Source: an uncultured delta proteobacterium (GTDB lineage Bacteria; Desulfobacterota; Binatia; JACPRU01). Taken from it: a stretch of DNA of 64,000 nt. This document shows positions 10,300 to 20,668 of the stretch, piece by piece. The DNA is taken from assembly GCA_963745025.1 (NCBI GenBank), contig CAVUWD010000019.1, forward strand, positions 96,001-160,000. Reading direction: 5' to 3'. The position numbers and the translations under genes were made by a program. The notes under the pieces are model-generated. The model was not told the DNA's origin. It did not search any database and worked only from the letters and a program-made list of their open reading frames with translations. Positions within the stretch are counted from its first letter, which is position 1. The number at the start of each line of letters is the position of its first letter.

Positions 10300-10350
10300 T
10301 TCGCTCGCTGGTGTACGGCGGTTGTGGTAGCAAGAGCCGAGGAGTCCATC

Positions 10351-11100
10351 ATGTCCGGTCATTCCAAGTGGTCGTCGATCAAGCACAAGAAGGCGGCGAA
10401 GGACGCAAAGCGCGGCAAGCTCTTCACCAAGCTGATCAAGGAGATCACCGTCGCCGCGCGCAACGGCGGGGATGTGAACGCGAATCCTCGCTTGCGAACG
10501 GCCGTGCTCACCGCCCGCGCGGCGAGCCTGCCGAACGACACGATCGAGCGTGCGATCAAGAAGGGTAGCGGACAGCTCGAGGGGCAGACGCTGGAGGAAA
10601 TCGACTACGAGGGTTACGGACCGGGCGGGGTCGCCGTCATGGCTCGCGTGCTCACCGACAATCGCAATCGCACGGTGAGCGATCTTCGCTTCCTCTTCAG
10701 CAAGCACGGCGGGAACCTCGGCGAAGCGAACAGCGTTGCCTGGATGTTCCAGAAGCGGGGCGTGGTCCACGTGGACAAGGGAGGCGTCGACGAGGATCGG
10801 GTGATGGAGCTGGCGCTCGAGGCCGGTGCTGACGACGTCTCGGACGCGGGCGAGAGCTTCGAAGTCGTCTGCTCGCCGGAAAATCTCGAGGCGGTGCGCA
10901 GCGGAATCGAGGGGGGCGGACTCAAGCTCACGAGCGCGGAAGTGACGATGATTCCGAAGAGCACCGTTCATTTGACCGGACCGCCGGCGGCGTCGGCCCT
11001 GAAGCTCCTCGAGGCCCTCGAGGATCACGACGACGTGCAGAACGTCTCGGCGAACCTCGACGTCGACCCGGCCGAACTCGAGAAGCTGTCCGCCGCATAA
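10351..11100 (+). CDS. yebC: YebC/PmpR family protein
   Basis: MSGHSKWSSIKHKK, YEGYGPGG, TDNRNRT. Confidence 0.97.
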   Translation: MSGHSKWSSIKHKKAAKDAKRGKLFTKLIKEITVAARNGGDVNANPRLRTAVLTARAASLPNDTIERAIKKGSGQLEGQTLEEIDYEGYGPGGVAVMARVLTDNRNRTVSDLRFLFSKHGGNLGEANSVAWMFQKRGVVHVDKGGVDEDRVMELALEAGADDVSDAGESFEVVCSPENLEAVRSGIEGGGLKLTSAEVTMIPKSTVHLTGPPAASALKLLEALEDHDDVQNVSANLDVDPAELEKLSAA

Positions 11101-11110
11101 GCATAGACGA

Positions 11111-11642
11111 GTGAATCAAGAGAGGGTGAGGGTGCTCGGAATCGACCCGGGCACCTCGGTGACAGGGTGGGGGGTGGTGGAGCCCGCGGGGCGGCGTTTC
11201 GCCACGTCGCGAGCGGCACCGTGGGGCTATCCGCCCGGTTGCCTCTCGGCGAGCGGCTGCGCCGAATCCGCGCTGCGGTCGAAGATCTCTGCCGAGCGCA
11301 CGCACCGATCGCGGTCGCACTCGAAAAGGCGTTCGTCGCGCACAACGTGCAGAGCGCCTTCCGCCTCGGCGAGGCCCGCGGCGCCGTGCTCATCGCGGCC
11401 GCCGAGGCCGGACTGCCGGTCTTCGAGTACGCTCCCGCGCAAGTGAAGCTGACGGTCGTCGGCTACGGACGCGCCGACAAGCAACAGATGGTGCGCGGCA
11501 TCGCGCTGCGCCTCGGCGTTCCGCCGGCCGAGCAAGCGATGAGGCGGACGCGCTGGCGCTCGCGCTCTGTCACCTGATCGGCGCGCGGCTGCGCGTACCC
11601 GAGCGCGCGCCTGCGCGACGCCGTGGCGGGGCGGCGCTGTGA
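11111..11642 (+). CDS. ruvC: Holliday junction resolvase RuvC (two apparent indels, ~11200 and ~11538)
   Basis: LGIDPG...GWGVV in one frame, [15 protein letters not shown] in a second, [12 protein letters not shown] in a third. Confidence 0.9.
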
Positions 11643-12230
11643 TCGCGCGCCTACGAGGACGGCTTTGTGACCGGACGGCGGAGGAGGTGGTCGTCGACGT
11701 CGCCGGCGTCGGTTATCAGGTCTACGCGTCCGCGCAGACGCTGGCGGCGCTTCCCGGCGAGGGCAGCGAGGTCGATTTGCTGATCGTCACCCACCTGCGC
11801 GACGACGCGCTCCAGCTCTTCGGCTTCGCCGACGCAGCCGAACGGACGCTCTTCCAGCTTCTCCACTCGGTATCCGGAATCGGCCCTCGCCTGGCCTTGA
11901 ACATCCTCTCGGGAATGCCGGTCGCCGAGCTTCGCGAGGCGATCCGCCGCCGCGATCTCGTTCGCCTGCACGCGCATCCCCGGCGTCGGCAAGAAGACCG
12001 CCGAACGCCTGTCGGTCGAGCTCGCCGACAAGCTCGCCGCGCTTCCCGAGGAGCGTCCCGTGCGACGCGACGGAACGGCGCACGGCGTCGCGGAGCAGGC
12101 CGTTTCGGCGCTCGTCAATCTCGGCTTCCGACCGGCCGAGGCCGAGCACGCCGTCGAAGCCGCGATGGGGGCCGGTCTCATGGCGTTCGAGGAAGTGGTT
12201 CGCGAAGCGCTGCGGAGCACCCGGCGATGA
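11639..12230 (+). CDS. ruvA: RuvA (apparent indel ~11975)
   Basis: [22 protein letters not shown]; [12 protein letters not shown] and ALVNLGF in the shifted frame. Confidence 0.9.
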
Positions 12231-13261
12231 CGCGCATCCGCGCGCGTTCGGGAGCGCTCGGCCCCGCCGCGCTCGACGACGACCGGGTCGTCGACCAATC
12301 GCTCCGTCCACTGCGCTTCGACGAGTACGTCGGCCAGGAGCGCGTGAAGGAGAACCTTCAGCTGATGGTGACTGCGGCACGCAGCCGTGGCGAGGTGCTC
12401 GACCATCTGCTCTTCCACGGCCCTCCGGGGCTCGGCAAGACCTCGCTCGCGCATCTGATCGCGCGCGAGATGGGGGTCAACATTCGCACCACCTCGGGAC
12501 CGATGATCGAGCGTGCCGGTGACCTGGCAGCGATCCTCACGAGCCTGGAGCCGCACGACGTGTTCTTCATCGACGAAGTCCATCGACTGAACCGGCTGAT
12601 CGAGGAAGTCCTCTATCCGGCGATGGAGGACTTCAAGCTCGACCTCGTGATCGGGCACGGTCCGGGCGCGAGCATGTCGAAGATTCCTCTGCAGCCCTTC
12701 ACCTGATCGCCGCGACCACTCGCGCGGGCCTGCTCTCGGCGCCGCTACGCAATCGGTTCGGCAATGATTTCCGGCTCGATTTCTACACGCAGGCGGAGCT
12801 CGAACGAATCCTCGCACGCTCGGCGCGCATCCTGTCGCGTGCGACTCGAAGCGGACGGCGCCGCGGAGATCGCCCGCCGCTCGCGCGGTACGCCGCGCAT
12901 CGCCAATCGGCTGCTCCGGCGGGTTCGTGACTTCGCGGAGGTGCGCGCGGACGGCGTCATCCGCTTGTCGGTCGCCCGGGACGCGCTGAAGCTTCTCGAC
13001 GTCGACGACATCGGCTTCGACCCGATGGACCGAACGCTGCTGCTCACGATCATCGACAAGTTCGACGGCGGGCCGGTCGGCATCGATACGCTGGCCGCCT
13101 CGATCGGAGAGGAGCGCGACACGCTCGAGGACGTCTACGAGCCGTACCTGTTGCAGATCGGATTCCTGCAGAGGACTCCGAAGGGCCGAGTTGCAACGTC
13201 GAGCGCGCGGCGGCATCTTGGCAGAGAACCCCGCAAGGGACCGCAGGGAGGCCTGTTTTGA
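12227..13261 (+). CDS. ruvB: RuvB (apparent indels ~12703 and ~12837)
   Basis: [50 protein letters not shown]. Confidence 0.93.
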
Positions 13262-13332: not shown

Positions 13333-13545
13333 ATGATGGATCTAGGCAAGACGCTCATTCTGCTTGGCGCGGTGATCATCGCCGCGGGCGTGGTGTTTCT
13401 GCTCCTCGGCCGCGTCCCCTGGATCGGTCGGCTGCCGGGTGACATCGTGATTCGGCGGGATGACTTCGTCTTCGTCTTTCCGCTGACGAGCTGTCTCCTG
13501 GTGAGCGCGCTACTCAGCCTCGTTCTCTATTTGCTTCGTCGTTGA
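13333..13545 (+). CDS. DUF2905 family small membrane protein
   Basis: GRLPGDI...FVFPLTSCLL signature; common downstream of ruvB. Confidence 0.88.
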   Translation: MMDLGKTLILLGAVIIAAGVVFLLLGRVPWIGRLPGDIVIRRDDFVFVFPLTSCLLVSALLSLVLYLLRR

Positions 13546-13563: not shown

Positions 13564-15790
13564 GTGACGACGTTGAACACCAACGAAACCAACCCGATCG
13601 AGGCCGAGGGCATCGCCGATGCGCGCGTCCGCCGTCGCGATGCCTGGCTGATCGCCATCGTCGCGATCGGCGTGTTTCTCTTCGCCGTCTTCGAGGCGCG
13701 ACTGCCGCAATTTTCGAGCGCGCAGTCGTTGATGAATCACCTCACGTTCTTCCTGCTCATCAACCTGAACGTGCTGCTGCTCGTCGTCTTCGCCTTCCTG
13801 GTGGTGCGGAATCTCGTCAAGCTCATGTTCGAGCGCCGCCAGCAGATTCTCGGCTCGCACCTTCGCACGCGCCTGGTGGTCGCCTTCGTCGGGCTTTCAC
13901 TTTCTCCCGCGGTGCTGCTGTTCATCGCGTCGACGAACTTCATGGACAACTCGATCGAGAAGTGGTTCGACGTACAAGTCGAGCAATCGCTCGAGGGCTC
14001 GCACGACGTGGTGCAGGCCTTCTACAAAGGGACCGCGGAGTCGATGCAGGCCCGCTCACGCGAGATCGCGGATACGCTCGCCACCCGAGGGCTGATCGCG
14101 CCCGAGCGACGCGCGGAGCTCCATCGCTTGCTCGAAGCGCGCCGGGCCCAGGCGGGGGTCAGTGCGGTGCAGATCTTTTCGCCAGCCCGAGAGCTCCTGA
14201 GCGTCGCGTTCTCGCCGTCCGCCGTGGGCGGCATCACTGTGGCGCCCGATAGCGAAGCATTCGAGCATCTGCTCGCGGGAGAGAGCCTGATGCGCGTCGA
14301 GCCCCTCGGAGATGGCGACGTTGTGCGCGGAGCCTCTCCCGTTCTCGATCATGGCCGCGTGATCGCCGCGGTGGCCATGGACCAATACATCCCGGTCAGC
14401 CTCTCGCATCGCGCCGAGGACATCGAACGCTCGTTCCGGGAATACCGCGAGCTGAAGATTCTCAAGCAACCGATCAAGAACACCTATCTGCTGACGCTCA
14501 CGCTGATCACGCTCGTCGTGGTGTTCGCCGCCACCTGGTACGGATTGTCGCTCGCCAAGAGCATCACCGTGCCCATCCAGCAGCTCGCCGAGGGCACGCG
14601 GGAGGTCGCGCACGGGAACTGGGACGTTCACATCGAGGGCGCGGGTGGGGACGAGATCGGCACCCTAGTGTCCGCGTTCAATCAGATGACCGGCGACCTC
14701 AAGAAGTTCAATACCGAGATCGAGGAGAGGCGCCGCCACATGGAGACGATTCTCGCCAACATCCGCGCCGGCGTCGTCTCGGTGTCTCCGGACGGTACCA
14801 TCACCACGTGGAACGCCGCGGCCGAGCACCTGTTCGGCATCTCGGCGCGCCAGGCGCGTGGCCGGCGGGCGGTCGAGGTGCTCACCGGTACCACGCTGGC
14901 ACCCGTGCGGGAGATGCTCGACCAGCTGCTCGCGACCGGTGCGACCCAGGGTGAACGCCAGGTCGAGGTGGTGCACGCCGAGGAGGCATTCACGCTGCTC
15001 GCAGCGGCTGCGCCGCTGCGGGATCCCGGCTCGCCGATCGACGGACCCCATGGCGCGGTGCTCTTCTTCGAGGACATCACGCAGATCCTCCAGGTGCAGC
15101 GAATGGAGGCCTGGCGCGAGGTCGCGCGGCGCATCGCGCACGAGATCAAGAATCCGCTCACGCCGATCCAGCTCTCGGCCCAGCGCCTGCAGAAGCGCTA
15201 CGCCCAGCTCCTCCGCGACGACGTGTTCGACGAGTGTACGCAGGACGATCATCAAGCAGGTCGATGACCTGAAGGCCCTGGTGAACGAGTTCTCGAGCTT
15301 CGCGCGCATGCCCACCGGGCACCATCGCCCCGAGGATCTGAACGGTCTCGTCGAGGAGGCCGTCGTCCTCTTCCGCGAGGGGCACCGGAAGATCCGCTTC
15401 GACGTGCGCACGGACCCGAGCCTGCCGCCTCTGATGCTCGACCGCGAGGGCGTCAAGCGAGCACTCATCAACATGCTCGACAACGCCGTCGCGGCTTGTG
15501 CCAACGGCCACGCGCAGGGGGGGCGGATCGAGATCACGACGTCGTATCTGCAGTCGCTCGGCCTGGTTCGCCTCGAGCTCGCCGACAACGGCTCGGGAAT
15601 GACGCCCGAGGTGAAGGCGCGGCTTTTCGAGCCCTACTTCTCGACGAAGAAGGACGGTACGGGTCTCGGCCTGGCGATCGTTTCGGCGATCTTCTCCGAT
15701 CACCGCGCCTTCATCCGCGTGCGCGACAACGAACCGAAGGGGAGTCGATTCATCGTCGAATTTCCGGTAAAAGAGCCGGTTGATGGCTGA
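13564..15790 (+). CDS. NtrY-like sensor histidine kinase (TM, HAMP, PAS, HisKA, HATPase; apparent indel ~15241)
   Basis: AWREVARRIAHEIKNPLTPIQLSAQRL; DNGSG, FEPYFSTK, GTGLGL in the shifted frame. Confidence 0.9.
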
Positions 15791-17050
15791 GACGATCCTG
15801 ATCGTCGACGACGAGGAGCAGATCCGCGCCAGCGTACGCGGGGTGCTCGCGGACGAGGGCTTCCGTGTGCTCGAGGCGGACAACGGGCGAACCGCGCTCG
15901 CGGTGATCGCCGCGGAGCACCCGCGGCTCGTCCTCGTCGACATCTGGATGCCCGAGGTCGATGGCGTCGAGATTCTGCGCGAGATCCAGAAGCGTCATCC
16001 TGGAACCCGAGTCGTCGTCATCTCCGGGCACGGAAACATCGAGACGGCCGTGCGCGCCACCCAACTCGGAGCGATCGACTTCATCGAGAAGCCATTTTCG
16101 ATCGAGCGCCTGCTGCAGCGGATCGAGCGCGCGCTCGGGTCACCGGCCGCCCGACTGCTGGAAGACGAGGCGGTCGCGACGGCGTCTCCACTGCGCGCGC
16201 CGGCGACTCCCGTCGGCCGCACCTCGCGCGCCGCACGCTCGCGCGCAGCGTGGTGGTCAACGGCCAGGGGCTCCACTCCGGCATCCGCACCGGCCTCATT
16301 CTCCATCCGGCGCCTCCGGGAACGGCAGTCGTCTTCGAGACCATCTCGGCCGACGTCGAGATCCCCGCGCTCGTCTACTACGTCGAGTCGACGGGCTACG
16401 CGACGACTCTCTTCCGCGACGGCGTGGTCGCCCAGACGGTCGAGCATCTAATGGCGACGCTGCACGCGTTCGGCATCGCGAACCTGCGGATCCGAATGCA
16501 AGGGGAGATTCCCATCCTCGACGGCTCTGCCATAGAATTCTGCGACCTCGTCGAATCGGGGGGCATCGAGCCCCAGGAGGAGGAGATCGAGGAGCTCGTC
16601 GTCGACCGCCGGGTAGCGATCGGCGATCCGGAAACCGGAAAGTACATCGCGCTCGAGCCCTGCGACGGATTCGAGGTGGACTACACGCTCGAGTATCCTC
16701 CACCGGTCGGGCGTGAGCACGTCGTCTACAAGCACGGCGGTGCCGACACGTTCCGCACCGAGATCGCTCCGGCGCGCACGTTCGGGTTCGTGAAGGACAT
16801 CGCTGCGCTCGAGCAAATGGGCCTCGCGGGCGGCGGACGCTTGCACAACTGCATCCTGATCGGCGACGACGGCGTCGTCAACACCCGCCTTCGACTCGAT
16901 TGTGAGTTCGTGCGGCACAAGATTCTCGACATCATGGGAGATTTTTTCTTGCTCGGCCGCCCCATTCGCGGTCGCGTCGTCGCGCGGATGACGGGTCACG
17001 GCGACAACATCGCGCTTCTCAAGCAAATCGATCAGCAGCTGGCGGACTAG
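15783..17050 (+). CDS. lpxC: Receiver domain fused to LpxC (UDP-3-O-acyl-GlcNAc deacetylase); apparent indel ~16222
   Basis: REC: ILIVDDE, DIWMP, ISGHG, KPF. LpxC: RTLARSV..GQGLHSG, TVEHLMA, PILDGSA, ARTFGF, HKILD, GH. No start codon upstream of the LpxC RTL motif. Confidence 0.8.
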
Positions 17051-17093
17051 ACTCGATCGAGATTTCCGTCGACGCCAGGCGCGGCGCTCGGAA

Positions 17094-17343: not shown

Positions 17344-17454
17344 CGGCGCTCGGAAGAAATCGCTTGTGTGTTCGACCTAGGGTGGTAGACTGCCCGTCTA
17401 CAACTCAAGGGTCAGGGAGATTCGTTGGAACGTCGGGGAACGCCGAGGGTATCC

Positions 17455-17766
17455 ATGAGCGAGGCACAGGAACGTCGAGGAGCCGAGCGACGGCACGCGG
17501 ATGCCGGGGGGACGATCTCGTTCGGGCAAGAGGCGTTGGGTTGCCGAGTCATCGATCTCTCCGAGACGGGCGCTCAGGTGCGGATCGACGGCAAGCGCGC
17601 CAGTCGAAATCTCGTCGGCAAGCGGGCGTCGTTGACGTTGGAAGGCTCCAAGCCGAGGCTGGTCGAGGGACGGGTCGTGTGGGCACGCCCCGCGGTGAAC
17701 GGCGTCTATCTCGGGATCGCCGTCGAAAACAGCGAGCCGAAGCCCGTCGAAAACGCCTCGCAGTGA
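17455..17766 (+). CDS. PilZ-domain (c-di-GMP-binding) protein
   Basis: ERRGAER (RxxxR) and DLSETG (DxSxxG). Confidence 0.85.
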   Translation: MSEAQERRGAERRHADAGGTISFGQEALGCRVIDLSETGAQVRIDGKRASRNLVGKRASLTLEGSKPRLVEGRVVWARPAVNGVYLGIAVENSEPKPVENASQ

Positions 17767-17769
17767 TTC

Positions 17770-18666
17770 TCAGCGGACGCGCAACGCGTTCAACGGCCCG
17801 TAGAGCGTGAACGAATAGGATCCGCTCGCCGCCTTCTGGTTGTGATTCAGCAGGGTCAGCAGCGGCTCGAACCCCGCGGGCGCTCCCGGAATCGGTTTCA
17901 CGTTGAGTACGGCATTGACGACCGGCATCTGGTTCGCGCTCAGCAGGAAGAGCTGACCATGTAGCTCGGCGTCTACCTCGGAGCCGGAGAGCTTGAGTGA
18001 GCGAACGTCCAGCCTCCCTGCCTTCAACTCGAATTCGGCCTCGCCGTTGGCGAAATGAAGATCGGGAATGGTGAATCCCTGCGCCTTGGCTTGCGTGAGG
18101 GACGCGCTCTTCAAGCCGAGCTTGCCGCGGCCCTCGAGATTCTTGAGCTCGCCGCGGCCGCTGAAGTGAATGTCTCCCGAGAGTGTTCCCTCCCAGTTGC
18201 CCTCGAGCAGCGCCGTGAGTCGCGGATACTGGGAAAGCCGGACCTCGTTCCAGGAGAGCCCGAGTGCTCCGGATGGATCGACGGAGCCGGTGAAGTCACC
18301 ACCGTATGCCCGACCCGAAAAATAGAAGGGGAAGCCATCACGGCCGAGCGATGGCCGGAAGGCGACTTCCGCGGCGGCGAACCACGGGTCGGTATCCTTT
18401 CCCGGCGCGATCAGGCGCGGCTGCGACAAGTGGTAGCCGTTCCACGGGCGCAACCACACTTCATCATAGTGGATTCGCCAGCCGGATTGGGCGGCGATCT
18501 CGTCGGTCCAGCGCCGGACGATGAGGTCGTGCGGGAACGTCAGCGCGAAGAACAGAACGAACCAGCCGACCGTCCACGCGGCGTAGCCGAGGGACGACCG
18601 GCCGGGGTATCGCCGGGGAAAGAAGCGGCCGAACCTGCCGGCGAAGCTCGCGATCGAGGAGCTCAT
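17770..18666 (-). CDS. gspN: Type II secretion protein GspN
   Basis: N-terminal TM ending LTFPHD; last gene of the gsp operon. Confidence 0.8.
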   Translation of the reverse strand: MSSSIASFAGRFGRFFPRRYPGRSSLGYAAWTVGWFVLFFALTFPHDLIVRRWTDEIAAQSGWRIHYDEVWLRPWNGYHLSQPRLIAPGKDTDPWFAAAEVAFRPSLGRDGFPFYFSGRAYGGDFTGSVDPSGALGLSWNEVRLSQYPRLTALLEGNWEGTLSGDIHFSGRGELKNLEGRGKLGLKSASLTQAKAQGFTIPDLHFANGEAEFELKAGRLDVRSLKLSGSEVDAELHGQLFLLSANQMPVVNAVLNVKPIPGAPAGFEPLLTLLNHNQKAASGSYSFTLYGPLNALRVR

Positions 18667-18671
18667 GCGTG

Positions 18672-19232
18672 TCAGCTCGCTGCCTTGATGCTGACGCGGG
18701 ACACCGCGAAGGTGACGTCGAACTGAGAGGGATCGGCGCCCCGCTTCTTCATCTGCAAGCGCGACACGTGAAGGGCGGCCGGCGACCGCTCGAGCTCATG
18801 GAGCAGCTCGACCGTCTGCTGCAGCGTGATTCCGACGAGCTGGACGTTGACGGCTTCTTCGACGTATTGATCCCCGATCGTCTTCGGGGAAGACGGCGCC
18901 ATCGACGCGACCCTGTCGCGGCTGACCTTCTTGGTGACGATACCATCGAGCGTGGAGTAGAGCCCGTTCGCCCCAGCGTCCTTGCTCGTGAGCGCGTCGG
19001 TCTGGCGTTTCAGGTCAAGGAAGACCCCGCGGAACGACTCCACCTGCTCCAACTGATGCTGCTTGGCGACGATTCGAGTTCGCAGCGCGCTCTTCACCGC
19101 TTGGGCCTTGTAGACGATCAGGAATACGAGGAAGCTCGCGAAAACCGCGCCGCCGATTGCGACGAACAGACGCTCCCGGGGTGCCAGCCGCGCGAAGGCA
19201 TGCTGGAGGTTGGCGAGCGAGAGCCACCTCAT
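18672..19232 (-). CDS. gspM: Type II secretion protein GspM
   Basis: LAPRERL + TM; position after gspL. Confidence 0.85.
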   Translation of the reverse strand: MRWLSLANLQHAFARLAPRERLFVAIGGAVFASFLVFLIVYKAQAVKSALRTRIVAKQHQLEQVESFRGVFLDLKRQTDALTSKDAGANGLYSTLDGIVTKKVSRDRVASMAPSSPKTIGDQYVEEAVNVQLVGITLQQTVELLHELERSPAALHVSRLQMKKRGADPSQFDVTFAVSRVSIKAAS

Positions 19233-20668
19233 CCCTCGGATCCTTTCCCCAAGAGCAAATTCATCCGGAATTCGACCTTGCCGTCCGCAGTCGTGCGCGG
19301 CTCCTTGACCTGCACCTCGCCGAAGAGCGGTGATTCGGCGATCTTCTTCCGGATGGTCTCCACGGCCTCGAACGACGAGGTCTTGGCCCGCAAGTGGACG
19401 CCGTCGACATCGATCGCCAGCTCGTCGACGTTCATGCGGGGCTCGGTGGGGGCGTGCTCGGAGATCTGCCGCAAGATCTCGAGCGGTGAAACCGGACCCG
19501 TCGGGCCGAAACCCAGTTGTTGCTGCTGCTTCTGGAGCCTCTTGATCTCCTGCTGGAGTTGCTCCGCTTCGTCGACGACTGGGGTGTTTGGCAACGCTTC
19601 GTGAAACGCCTGGCGGACGATGTCGCGAAGCTCGTCGTACTGACGGGATAGCTGATAATAGGAGACACCCTGCCAGAGAGCGAACGACACGAGGACGACG
19701 GCGGAGAGCACCGCGAGGCGCGTCACCGTTCCCTGCATCTGCTCTTGGCCGCGCCGATACGAGAACGACTCGCGGCGGAAATTCAGACCGAGCGTCGGCG
19801 CGTCGGCGATCCCCCGCAGCGCGAGGCCGAGCGCCGGAGCATAGGTCCCTTGGCGGCCGTGTAGCGCCGCTGGAACCTGACGGAGCGGAAGGTCTTCGAG
19901 TCGCTGGACGGTGAGGCCGACTTGGCTGCGTAGCAACTCGAGCAGCTCTGGTCCCGACGAGCCTCCGACCAGCAACGCCCGAAGCTCGACGTCATGCCCG
20001 CTCGGGGGCCCGCCGTTGAGGCTCTTGAGGCTCCAGACGATCTCACGGAGGAACGCAGGCACCGGCGGCTCACCCGCCACGTCGATCACTCTCAGGTGCT
20101 CGAGCTGACCGCTGCGGTAGATCGCGAACGTGCCGCGTGCGCCGCTCACGTGAAGGAAGGCGTAGCGCTCCGGTCGATCGCCCTCGAACAGTTGGAGCAC
20201 GTTCAGGGTGGTGAGCGGCGCGAAGTCGACCACCGCGGGATCGAGTCCCGCCTCGGCAAGAATCTTCAGGTGATCGTCGATCCGAGATTTCGGTGCCAGC
20301 GCGGCGAACACCCGCGTGCCGTCAGCCGTCTTATTGAGAACCTGGAAATCGACGATCGCCTCATCGACGGCGAACGGGACCTGGCTCTCGAGCTCGAAGG
20401 GGACGGTTTGCTGAAGCTTCCGCCAGTCGCGGAACGGCAGCTCGAGAAACCGGTAGACGGCAGCGTCTCCGGGGAGGGCCGACAGCACCGTGTCCGCGGT
20501 CATGGGATGGCGGGATACGAAGTTCCTCAGTTGCTCACCCAATTGCACGGTGGGGTCCCGAGGCTCGGAGAAGTACCCGACGATCTGATAGCTGCGGAAG
20601 CTCGTCTCGACGACCACCGCGACCAGCTGGGAGCCATGCGGGTCGAGTGCCAGGATCCGATTCGGCAT
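19229..20668 (-). CDS. gspL: Type II secretion protein GspL (PilM/PilN-like)
   Basis: Actin-like N-terminus (LPF...VPFELESQVPF), TM, PilN-like C-terminus. Confidence 0.85.
   Translation of the reverse strand: MPNRILALDPHGSQLVAVVVETSFRSYQIVGYFSEPRDPTVQLGEQLRNFVSRHPMTADTVLSALPGDAAVYRFLELPFRDWRKLQQTVPFELESQVPFAVDEAIVDFQVLNKTADGTRVFAALAPKSRIDDHLKILAEAGLDPAVVDFAPLTTLNVLQLFEGDRPERYAFLHVSGARGTFAIYRSGQLEHLRVIDVAGEPPVPAFLREIVWSLKSLNGGPPSGHDVELRALLVGGSSGPELLELLRSQVGLTVQRLEDLPLRQVPAALHGRQGTYAPALGLALRGIADAPTLGLNFRRESFSYRRGQEQMQGTVTRLAVLSAVVLVSFALWQGVSYYQLSRQYDELRDIVRQAFHEALPNTPVVDEAEQLQQEIKRLQKQQQQLGFGPTGPVSPLEILRQISEHAPTEPRMNVDELAIDVDGVHLRAKTSSFEAVETIRKKIAESPLFGEVQVKEPRTTADGKVEFRMNLLLGKGSEG

Follow-up and report, generated by a model that had tools for sequence, protein, structure and literature searches.

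In a 64,000-nucleotide stretch of DNA from an uncultured soil bacterium of Candidatus Binatia (GenBank assembly GCA_963745025.1, contig CAVUWD010000019.1, positions 96,001 to 160,000; hereafter the window), the gene for LpxC, the deacetylase of lipid A synthesis, is almost certainly fused to a receiver domain (REC), so that it would encode a single protein of about 422 amino acids (aa). This gene lies directly behind that of an NtrY-like sensor histidine kinase, which makes its product a candidate for control by phosphorylation, as an earlier note made from the letters of the window had proposed. LpxC catalyses the committed step and governs the flux into lipid A; it is also a major target of antibiotics. 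What is understood of its control comes mostly from enterobacteria and involves FtsH/LapB proteolysis. A receiver attached to the only LpxC across an entire bacterial class hints at another control logic, in which a kinase signal acts on the enzyme itself.

The receiver-LpxC gene and the adjacent kinase

The locus as assembled consists of the following features, where X1 and X2 denote public sequencing runs whose contigs were compared with the window.

13564..15243, + strand, frame 1: N-terminal part of the NtrY-like sensor histidine kinase (transmembrane/N-terminal region, HAMP, PAS and the start of HisKA; Pfam)
15241, + strand: extra base breaking the kinase frame (absent in the X1 and X2 contigs; tblastn frame change)
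15242..15790, + strand, frame 2: C-terminal part of the kinase (remainder of HisKA, HATPase_c; Pfam HATPase_c)
15783..16230, + strand, frame 0: NtrX-type REC (15783-~16140) and Ala/Pro/Arg-rich linker (Pfam, NCBIfam)
16230..16231, + strand: site of a missing base, where one C more puts REC and LpxC in one frame (X1 and X2 contigs)
16232..17050, + strand, frame 2: LpxC (UDP-3-O-acyl-N-acetylglucosamine deacetylase) domain with a short C-terminal tail, stop codon at 17048-17050 (Pfam)

The segment from 15783 to 17050 thus holds a complete REC and a complete LpxC in two frames that are one base apart. The Response_reg model (PF00072) is matched over its whole length (model 1-111 of 111; 115.9 bits against a cut-off of 30.2, E 1.3e-33) in an open reading frame (ORF) at 15780/15783..16451. 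Counted from the ATG at 15783, this receiver has the acidic pair D9/D10, the phospho-acceptor D53 in DIWMP, S81 in SGHG and K103 in KPF; the roles of the acidic pair, the phospho-acceptor Asp, the Ser/Thr and the Lys are established family knowledge. The Pfam LpxC model (PF03331) is matched with 260.2 bits (cut-off 27) over positions 1-266 of 268, beginning at window position 16229. The EH, RTFGF, HKILDxxGD and GH motifs of this LpxC align column for column with the solved LpxC of P. aeruginosa (E 3.4e-47), and we take its zinc ligands and catalytic residues to be the His/His/Asp set, a Glu as general base, a second His, a Thr and a Lys. Both the complete receiver running through an Ala/Pro linker into LpxC behind the kinase and the retention of EH, HKILD and GH, as read in the earlier note, are borne out by these matches and residues. 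That note had also raised the question whether this is the only lpxC of the genome, and a search of the 5.65-Mb genome, with some 7% of it unassembled, gave the window gene as the sole LpxC match, with LpxB and LpxK present in the same genome. Deacetylase activity on UDP-3-O-acyl-N-acetylglucosamine is supported only indirectly, by this sole-lpxC status and the presence of LpxB and LpxK.

The same architecture was found in relatives. REC, linker and LpxC stand in one open frame at all ten intact loci (G002, G003, G005, G007, G010, G015, G018, G021, G023 and G026), which come from six families of the class, and LpxC was found in 31 of the 31 genomes of the relatives search. A database search with the protein of G002, a genome of the same family as the window, returned 4638 matches at E<=1e-30; the best 120 of these all contain both PF00072 and PF03331, are named only 'UDP-3-O-acyl-N-acetylglucosamine deacetylase' and come mostly from Candidatus Binatia. 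Furthermore, when 301 genomes of the phylum were sampled, a single alignment extended across both domains in 35. Of the 30 ESM Atlas clusters matched, 17 carry both domains in 100% of their members; these 17 have at least 50 members each, and the commonest phyla among them are Binatota and Thermodesulfobacteriota. The separate REC and LpxC genes in relatives that the earlier note had named, together with reads confirming the shift, as grounds for abandoning its reading were not what these searches returned: there is one gene in the relatives, and near-identical strains lack the frame shift of the window.

In an alignment of 70 fused proteins with 46-93% identity to the first sequence, D9, D10, D53, S81 and K103 of REC are invariant (70/70), and so are E216, H217, T328, H374, K375, D378, D382 and H401 of LpxC. 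The G002 ortholog, the only protein tested against the lpxC equivalog TIGR00325, passes it with 238.7 bits at a cut-off of 187.25. Judged by these residues and profiles, the REC and LpxC halves both look competent. REC-LpxC is an additional output type among the response regulators with enzymatic outputs, and it is widespread but apparently unstudied. In agreement with the earlier note, which knew of no characterisation of such a mechanism, our literature search, which did not extend to subscription journals or supplements, turned up no description of a REC-LpxC protein; census tables of response-regulator architectures could list it. We likewise know of no structure or assay for this architecture.

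The receiver is of the NtrX type. Among NCBIfam models, that of NtrX (NF051870) is the best for the window REC with 136.4 bits, followed by AtoC with 105.3; the NtrX match covers positions 2-121 of 452 and does not reach the equivalog cut-off of 600. By these profiles the receiver is of NtrX type and the window protein as a whole is not an NtrX. Among solved structures, 4d6x/5m7n match the REC best (E 6.5e-32); their titles read 'Nitrogen assimilation regulatory protein' and 'Fis family protein', and they are presumably Brucella NtrX.

As for the kinase, the window sequence matches HAMP (54.8 bits), PAS (46.9), HisKA (28.1) and HATPase_c (74.9) of Pfam across two frames, and it is 79% identical to residues 1-565 and 91% identical to residues 565-744 of the intact 747-aa kinase of G002. 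In the G002 ortholog, NtrY_N exceeds its Pfam threshold (27.3 bits, cut-off 23.2), and HAMP, PAS, HisKA and HATPase_c are matched too; for the window kinase, NtrY_N was not reported by Pfam at E<=0.01. The NtrY equivalog was not among the 25 best of 76 NCBIfam matches, the best of which is a LIC_11548-family kinase with 276 bits against a cut-off of 750. At every one of the 14 Binatia-type loci (14/14) the fusion is directly preceded by an NtrY-like kinase gene, which substantiates the pairing first read from the window alone; in the window itself, the end of the kinase gene and the start of REC share 8 nt. From this adjacency and the start/stop overlap, we infer that the adjacent kinase would be the cognate partner that phosphorylates REC.

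Frame breaks in the assembled sequence

As assembled, LpxC is not one uninterrupted coding sequence: its N-terminal strand has no start codon and the REC frame is off by one. The LpxC frame offers no ATG, GTG or TTG before the GTG at 16250, which comes after the RTL...GLHSG N-terminus, in line with what the earlier note had said of this motif. The kinase, whose break the earlier note had not mentioned, is split as well, with HAMP, PAS and the start of HisKA in 13564..15267 and HATPase_c in the frame ending at 15790; a tblastn comparison with G002 places the change from frame 1 to frame 2 at 15242/15243.

To judge these breaks, contigs from the four best-matching public runs (X1-X4, the best of which contained 0.39 of the sampled words) were compared with the window; the X3 and X4 contigs do not cover position 16230. 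One X1 contig (1992 nt) covers 15130-17058 and differs from the window by 59 substitutions in 1929 bases and two gaps, and two contigs of X2 span 14900-15372 and 15910-16700 (the latter 792 nt long) with one gap each. The sole indels between the window and these contigs, which come from two other studies and are about 97% identical to it, are the omission of base 15241 and the insertion of a C behind 16230, each seen in one X1 contig and one X2 contig. It is precisely these two changes that mend the reading frame of the kinase and bring REC and LpxC into one frame. The claim that one added base joins the two frames therefore holds, and its place, given earlier as about 16222, is refined by the near-identical contigs to just after 16230.

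The two breaks do not stand alone. Compared with the ORFs of G002, the region of 11.1-17.05 kb has five frame changes, two in ruvC and one each in ruvA, the kinase gene and REC-LpxC. Within 11111-12212, ruvC is broken near 11200 and 11535 and ruvA near 11967, all of them intact genes in G002; ruvB (12185-13258) and a YebC-family gene (10333-11097) are intact in the window. G001, an assembly of the same genus, has its breaks elsewhere, two within REC and one in the kinase, and its linker runs in frame into the LpxC N-terminus.

Because near-identical contigs lack exactly these indels, five breaks fall within 6 kb, G001 is broken elsewhere and the gene is the sole lpxC of a genome with LpxB and LpxK, the window breaks are very probably one-base consensus errors of an error-prone assembly. 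It is highly improbable that the frameshift is real, in which case REC with an out-of-frame tail and a truncated LpxC from the GTG at 16250 would be made separately, or lpxC would be a pseudogene. The assembled sequence does carry the shift, and the shift-free contigs come from strains that differ by about 3% (59 other letters in 1929 bases); however, a genome keeping LpxB and LpxK would then be left with its sole lpxC disrupted, a start at 16250 would cost LpxC its conserved first strand (model match from 16229 on), and the concurrent breaks in kinase, ruvA and ruvC point to assembly rather than biology, as do the other sites of G001 and the absence of exactly these indels from two independent related contigs. 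Programmed frameshifting was also considered and is ruled out by the plain in-frame gene in relatives and near-identical strains, together with the different break sites of G001. In practice, the gene should be read as unsplit, and the frequent one-base errors of this assembly will mislead gene callers.

Short, long and stand-alone forms

The history of the fusion was approached with 82 loci, hand-picked rather than drawn at random from the 301-genome phylum sample, which comprise 24 stand-alone LpxCs and two kinds of fused form: 39 short ones, in which the distance from the start of REC to that of LpxC is 143-182 aa, and 19 long ones, in which it is 410-466 aa. The long forms have the architecture REC, Sigma54_activat, AAA_lid, LpxC; one of the 19 has no REC in the same frame, and one is covered by the NtrX model from position 3 to 452 (of 452) before LpxC follows. 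In a quick maximum-likelihood tree of the LpxC domain, the fused LpxCs, long forms included, make up one clade: the 58 fused rows are split from the 24 stand-alone rows by a branch with a support of 99 (Shimodaira-Hasegawa-like approximate likelihood ratio test, SH-aLRT). The tail behind the catalytic GH has a median length of 16 aa in short forms (n=38) and 17 aa in long forms (n=18), compared with 42 aa where LpxC stands alone (n=20); the six rows lacking the GH motif were not counted.

Some unfused relatives have the genes of a two-component system beside lpxC. At 5 of 16 stand-alone loci, lpxC is followed on one strand by an NtrY-like kinase gene (39-43% identical) and then by the gene of an NtrX-like regulator composed of REC, AAA+ and a helix-turn-helix (HTH). 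Motif counts by simple regular expressions showed that the regulators of these five loci keep Walker A (5/5), the Walker B DE (5/5) and, in all cases except one, GAFTGA (4/5), and that the fused long forms keep Walker A (19/19) and have neither the Walker B DE (0/19) nor GAFTGA (0/19). By these motifs, the AAA+ module of the fused long forms is visibly decayed. These data suggest a path in which a cluster of lpxC, kinase and sigma54 regulator, as in the unfused relatives, would have given rise to a regulator-LpxC fusion, whose AAA+ module would then have decayed and, in Binatia, been lost. Since the gene order differs, with lpxC first in the cluster and last in the fusion, this path also requires a rearrangement, for example through a tandem duplication, which is an inferred step, and the quick tree of the 82 LpxC domains does not resolve the order of events from long to short. 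The stepwise series of separate genes, decayed-ATPase fusion and REC-LpxC could serve to trace the conversion of transcriptional into post-translational control.

Two observations from the wider sample concern the distribution of the fusion. One genome (G064, loci L102 and L170) has a very divergent REC-LpxC, with a branch length of 1.3, together with a stand-alone LpxC, and its fusion is possibly redundant or neofunctionalised. In family f53 of the phylum sample, four genomes that are 99-100% complete (G107, G202, G231 and G314) gave no match to the REC-LpxC query at E<=1e-20 and may lack LpxC; three more genomes of this family have weak matches to the query, of about 1e-21.

Proposed control of LpxC and the genes around it

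In the mechanism that we propose, the NtrY-like membrane kinase and REC-LpxC would be encoded by a two-gene operon, the kinase would phosphorylate Asp53 of the receiver, and the phosphorylated receiver would then change LpxC output post-translationally. This could occur through control of catalysis, either by occlusion and release, as in CheB, or by dimerisation, or else through control of LpxC stability; the receiver would thereby take the place of the FtsH/LapB-type proteolysis known from E. coli. From the sequences, it is probable that REC phosphorylation controls LpxC in some way. We see about even chances that this control replaces both sigma54 transcriptional control and FtsH/LapB-type proteolysis; in this reading, an lpxC-dedicated regulator would have become fused to its target enzyme and later have lost its ATPase and DNA-binding parts. 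If true, this would document how a transcription factor became an allosteric domain of the protein whose gene it once regulated.

The structural predictions were made with the G002 ortholog. Its AlphaFold2 model has a mean predicted local distance difference test score (pLDDT) of 89.3 and a predicted template modelling score (pTM) of 0.90, and linker residues 123-137 have a pLDDT below 50. The pTM of 0.90 suggests a fixed arrangement of the REC and LpxC domains. A complex prediction from its REC (1-122) and LpxC (143-417) as partners, run without controls, gave scores of 0.30 and 0.14 against a mark of 0.32 and is given no weight in either direction.

The kinase appears to have the architecture of that in the NtrY/NtrX systems of Brucella, Rhodobacter sphaeroides and Caulobacter, with the NtrY_N region (in the G002 ortholog), HAMP, PAS, HisKA and HATPase_c, and the window REC resembles the NtrX model and 4d6x/5m7n most closely. 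NtrX, however, is a DNA-binding REC-AAA+-HTH regulator, whereas in the fusion AAA+ and HTH are absent and the output is the enzyme itself. According to one study, R. sphaeroides without NtrYX has 8.8-fold more lpxC mRNA and more lipopolysaccharide, as an indirect effect (PMC7240162). In another, the D. vulgaris sigma54 regulator DVU2934 (kinase DVU2931) has lpxC (DVU2917) as its single mapped target, and in S. fumaroxidans lpxC lies directly upstream of the orthologous regulator operon (PMC3333781). By analogy, the DVU2934 and NtrYX cases may serve as a precedent for a two-component link to lpxC. The 5 of 16 unfused loci described above show a like gene order, lpxC before kinase and regulator, and their regulators keep sigma54-activator motifs. 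In the lpxC-dedicated system of D. vulgaris, control is transcriptional and the proteins are separate; here, by contrast, the receiver of the regulator is covalently joined to LpxC.

Similar layouts are known among response regulators with enzymatic outputs. CheB (REC-methylesterase), PleD and WspR (REC-GGDEF) and RpfG (REC-HD-GYP) likewise have a receiver at the N-terminus and, behind a flexible linker, a catalytic domain at the C-terminus, and in CheB the unphosphorylated receiver occludes the active site. This occlusion may be used, by analogy, as a working model for REC-LpxC. The outputs of these four proteins are signalling enzymes, whereas that of REC-LpxC is a biosynthetic metalloamidase of an essential pathway and the cell's only copy.

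The FtsH/LapB control of E. coli and the proposed REC control are both post-translational and bear on the same committed step. They differ in that the fused LpxCs are without the long C-terminal tail and in that a profile search gave no LapB above the cut-off in the genome. The C-terminal end of E. coli LpxC is reportedly needed for degradation by FtsH, and the fused LpxCs appear, from their tail lengths, to have lost this usual control element. When LapB was looked for with PF18073, the best match in the genome was RadA and the second a protein with tetratricopeptide repeats and a zinc ribbon; this family also matches 10 of 14 control genomes, Gram-positives included.

Two other readings of the receiver have to be set against control of catalysis. 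Stand-alone receivers such as RssB and CpdR act as a degron or adaptor for an AAA+ protease, and REC could in the same way control the stability of LpxC rather than its catalysis, as a built-in degron or adaptor that would place proteolysis under a two-component gate. The window REC does match the models of RssB (96.1 bits) and CpdR (67.4 bits), and the absence of the long tail from the fused forms would put a degradation signal elsewhere, for example in REC or the disordered linker; moreover, LpxC is classically controlled by proteolysis, as PMC3333781 also states. We nevertheless think this reading unlikely, as the RssB and CpdR scores reflect generic receiver similarity and lie far below the 136.4 bits of NtrX, the pTM of 0.90 hints at a fixed REC-LpxC arrangement that would fit allostery at least as well, and no protease partner was identified. 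Much less probable still is that the receiver is a leftover of the fusion without regulatory role, or a phosphate sink for the kinase, with LpxC being constitutive. The long forms, with the Walker B DE or GAFTGA kept in 0 of 19, do illustrate that parts of a fused regulator can lose function, and there is no kinase in the fetched flank of 11 of the 14 fused loci outside the Binatia type. Against such a leftover, the five residues of the phosphorylation chemistry are invariant in all 70 fused proteins although these are only 46-93% identical, REC was kept when AAA+ was deleted, and both the kinase adjacency and the start/stop overlap are kept throughout the Binatia-type loci.

Several points weigh against or limit the explanation laid out here. 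The genome contains a weak LapB-like protein with tetratricopeptide repeats and a zinc ribbon (38 bits against a cut-off of 363), so that proteolytic control is possible. Outside the Binatia-type loci, the kinase is adjacent in 3 of 14 fused loci within the fetched flanks, and the kinase pairing is therefore not universal in the fused family. Attribution of the frame breaks to assembly rests on near-identical strains and error density, not on the source strain's own reads. In the family comparison, to the hand-picked loci and the simple motif expressions is added that the quick tree interleaves short and long forms, the starred branches forcing one change only.

As to the surroundings, the order yebC-ruvC-ruvA-ruvB-DUF2905-kinase-REC-LpxC is common to the window and G002. 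Directly upstream of the kinase, at 13333-13545, is the gene of a small DUF2905 membrane protein (78.2 bits), which has the same place in G002. On the minus strand, 17770-20668 contains type II secretion or type IV pilus assembly genes, namely a GspL/PilM-like gene (19229-20668), a weakly type II secretion system M-like gene (18672-19232) and the gene of an unassigned 298-aa protein (17770-18666). Just downstream of LpxC and on its strand, 17425-17766 encodes a 113-aa PilZ-domain protein (39.6 bits; 84% identity in G002), which would place a cyclic di-GMP receptor beside a lipid A switch; the two may be connected, or there may be no connection.

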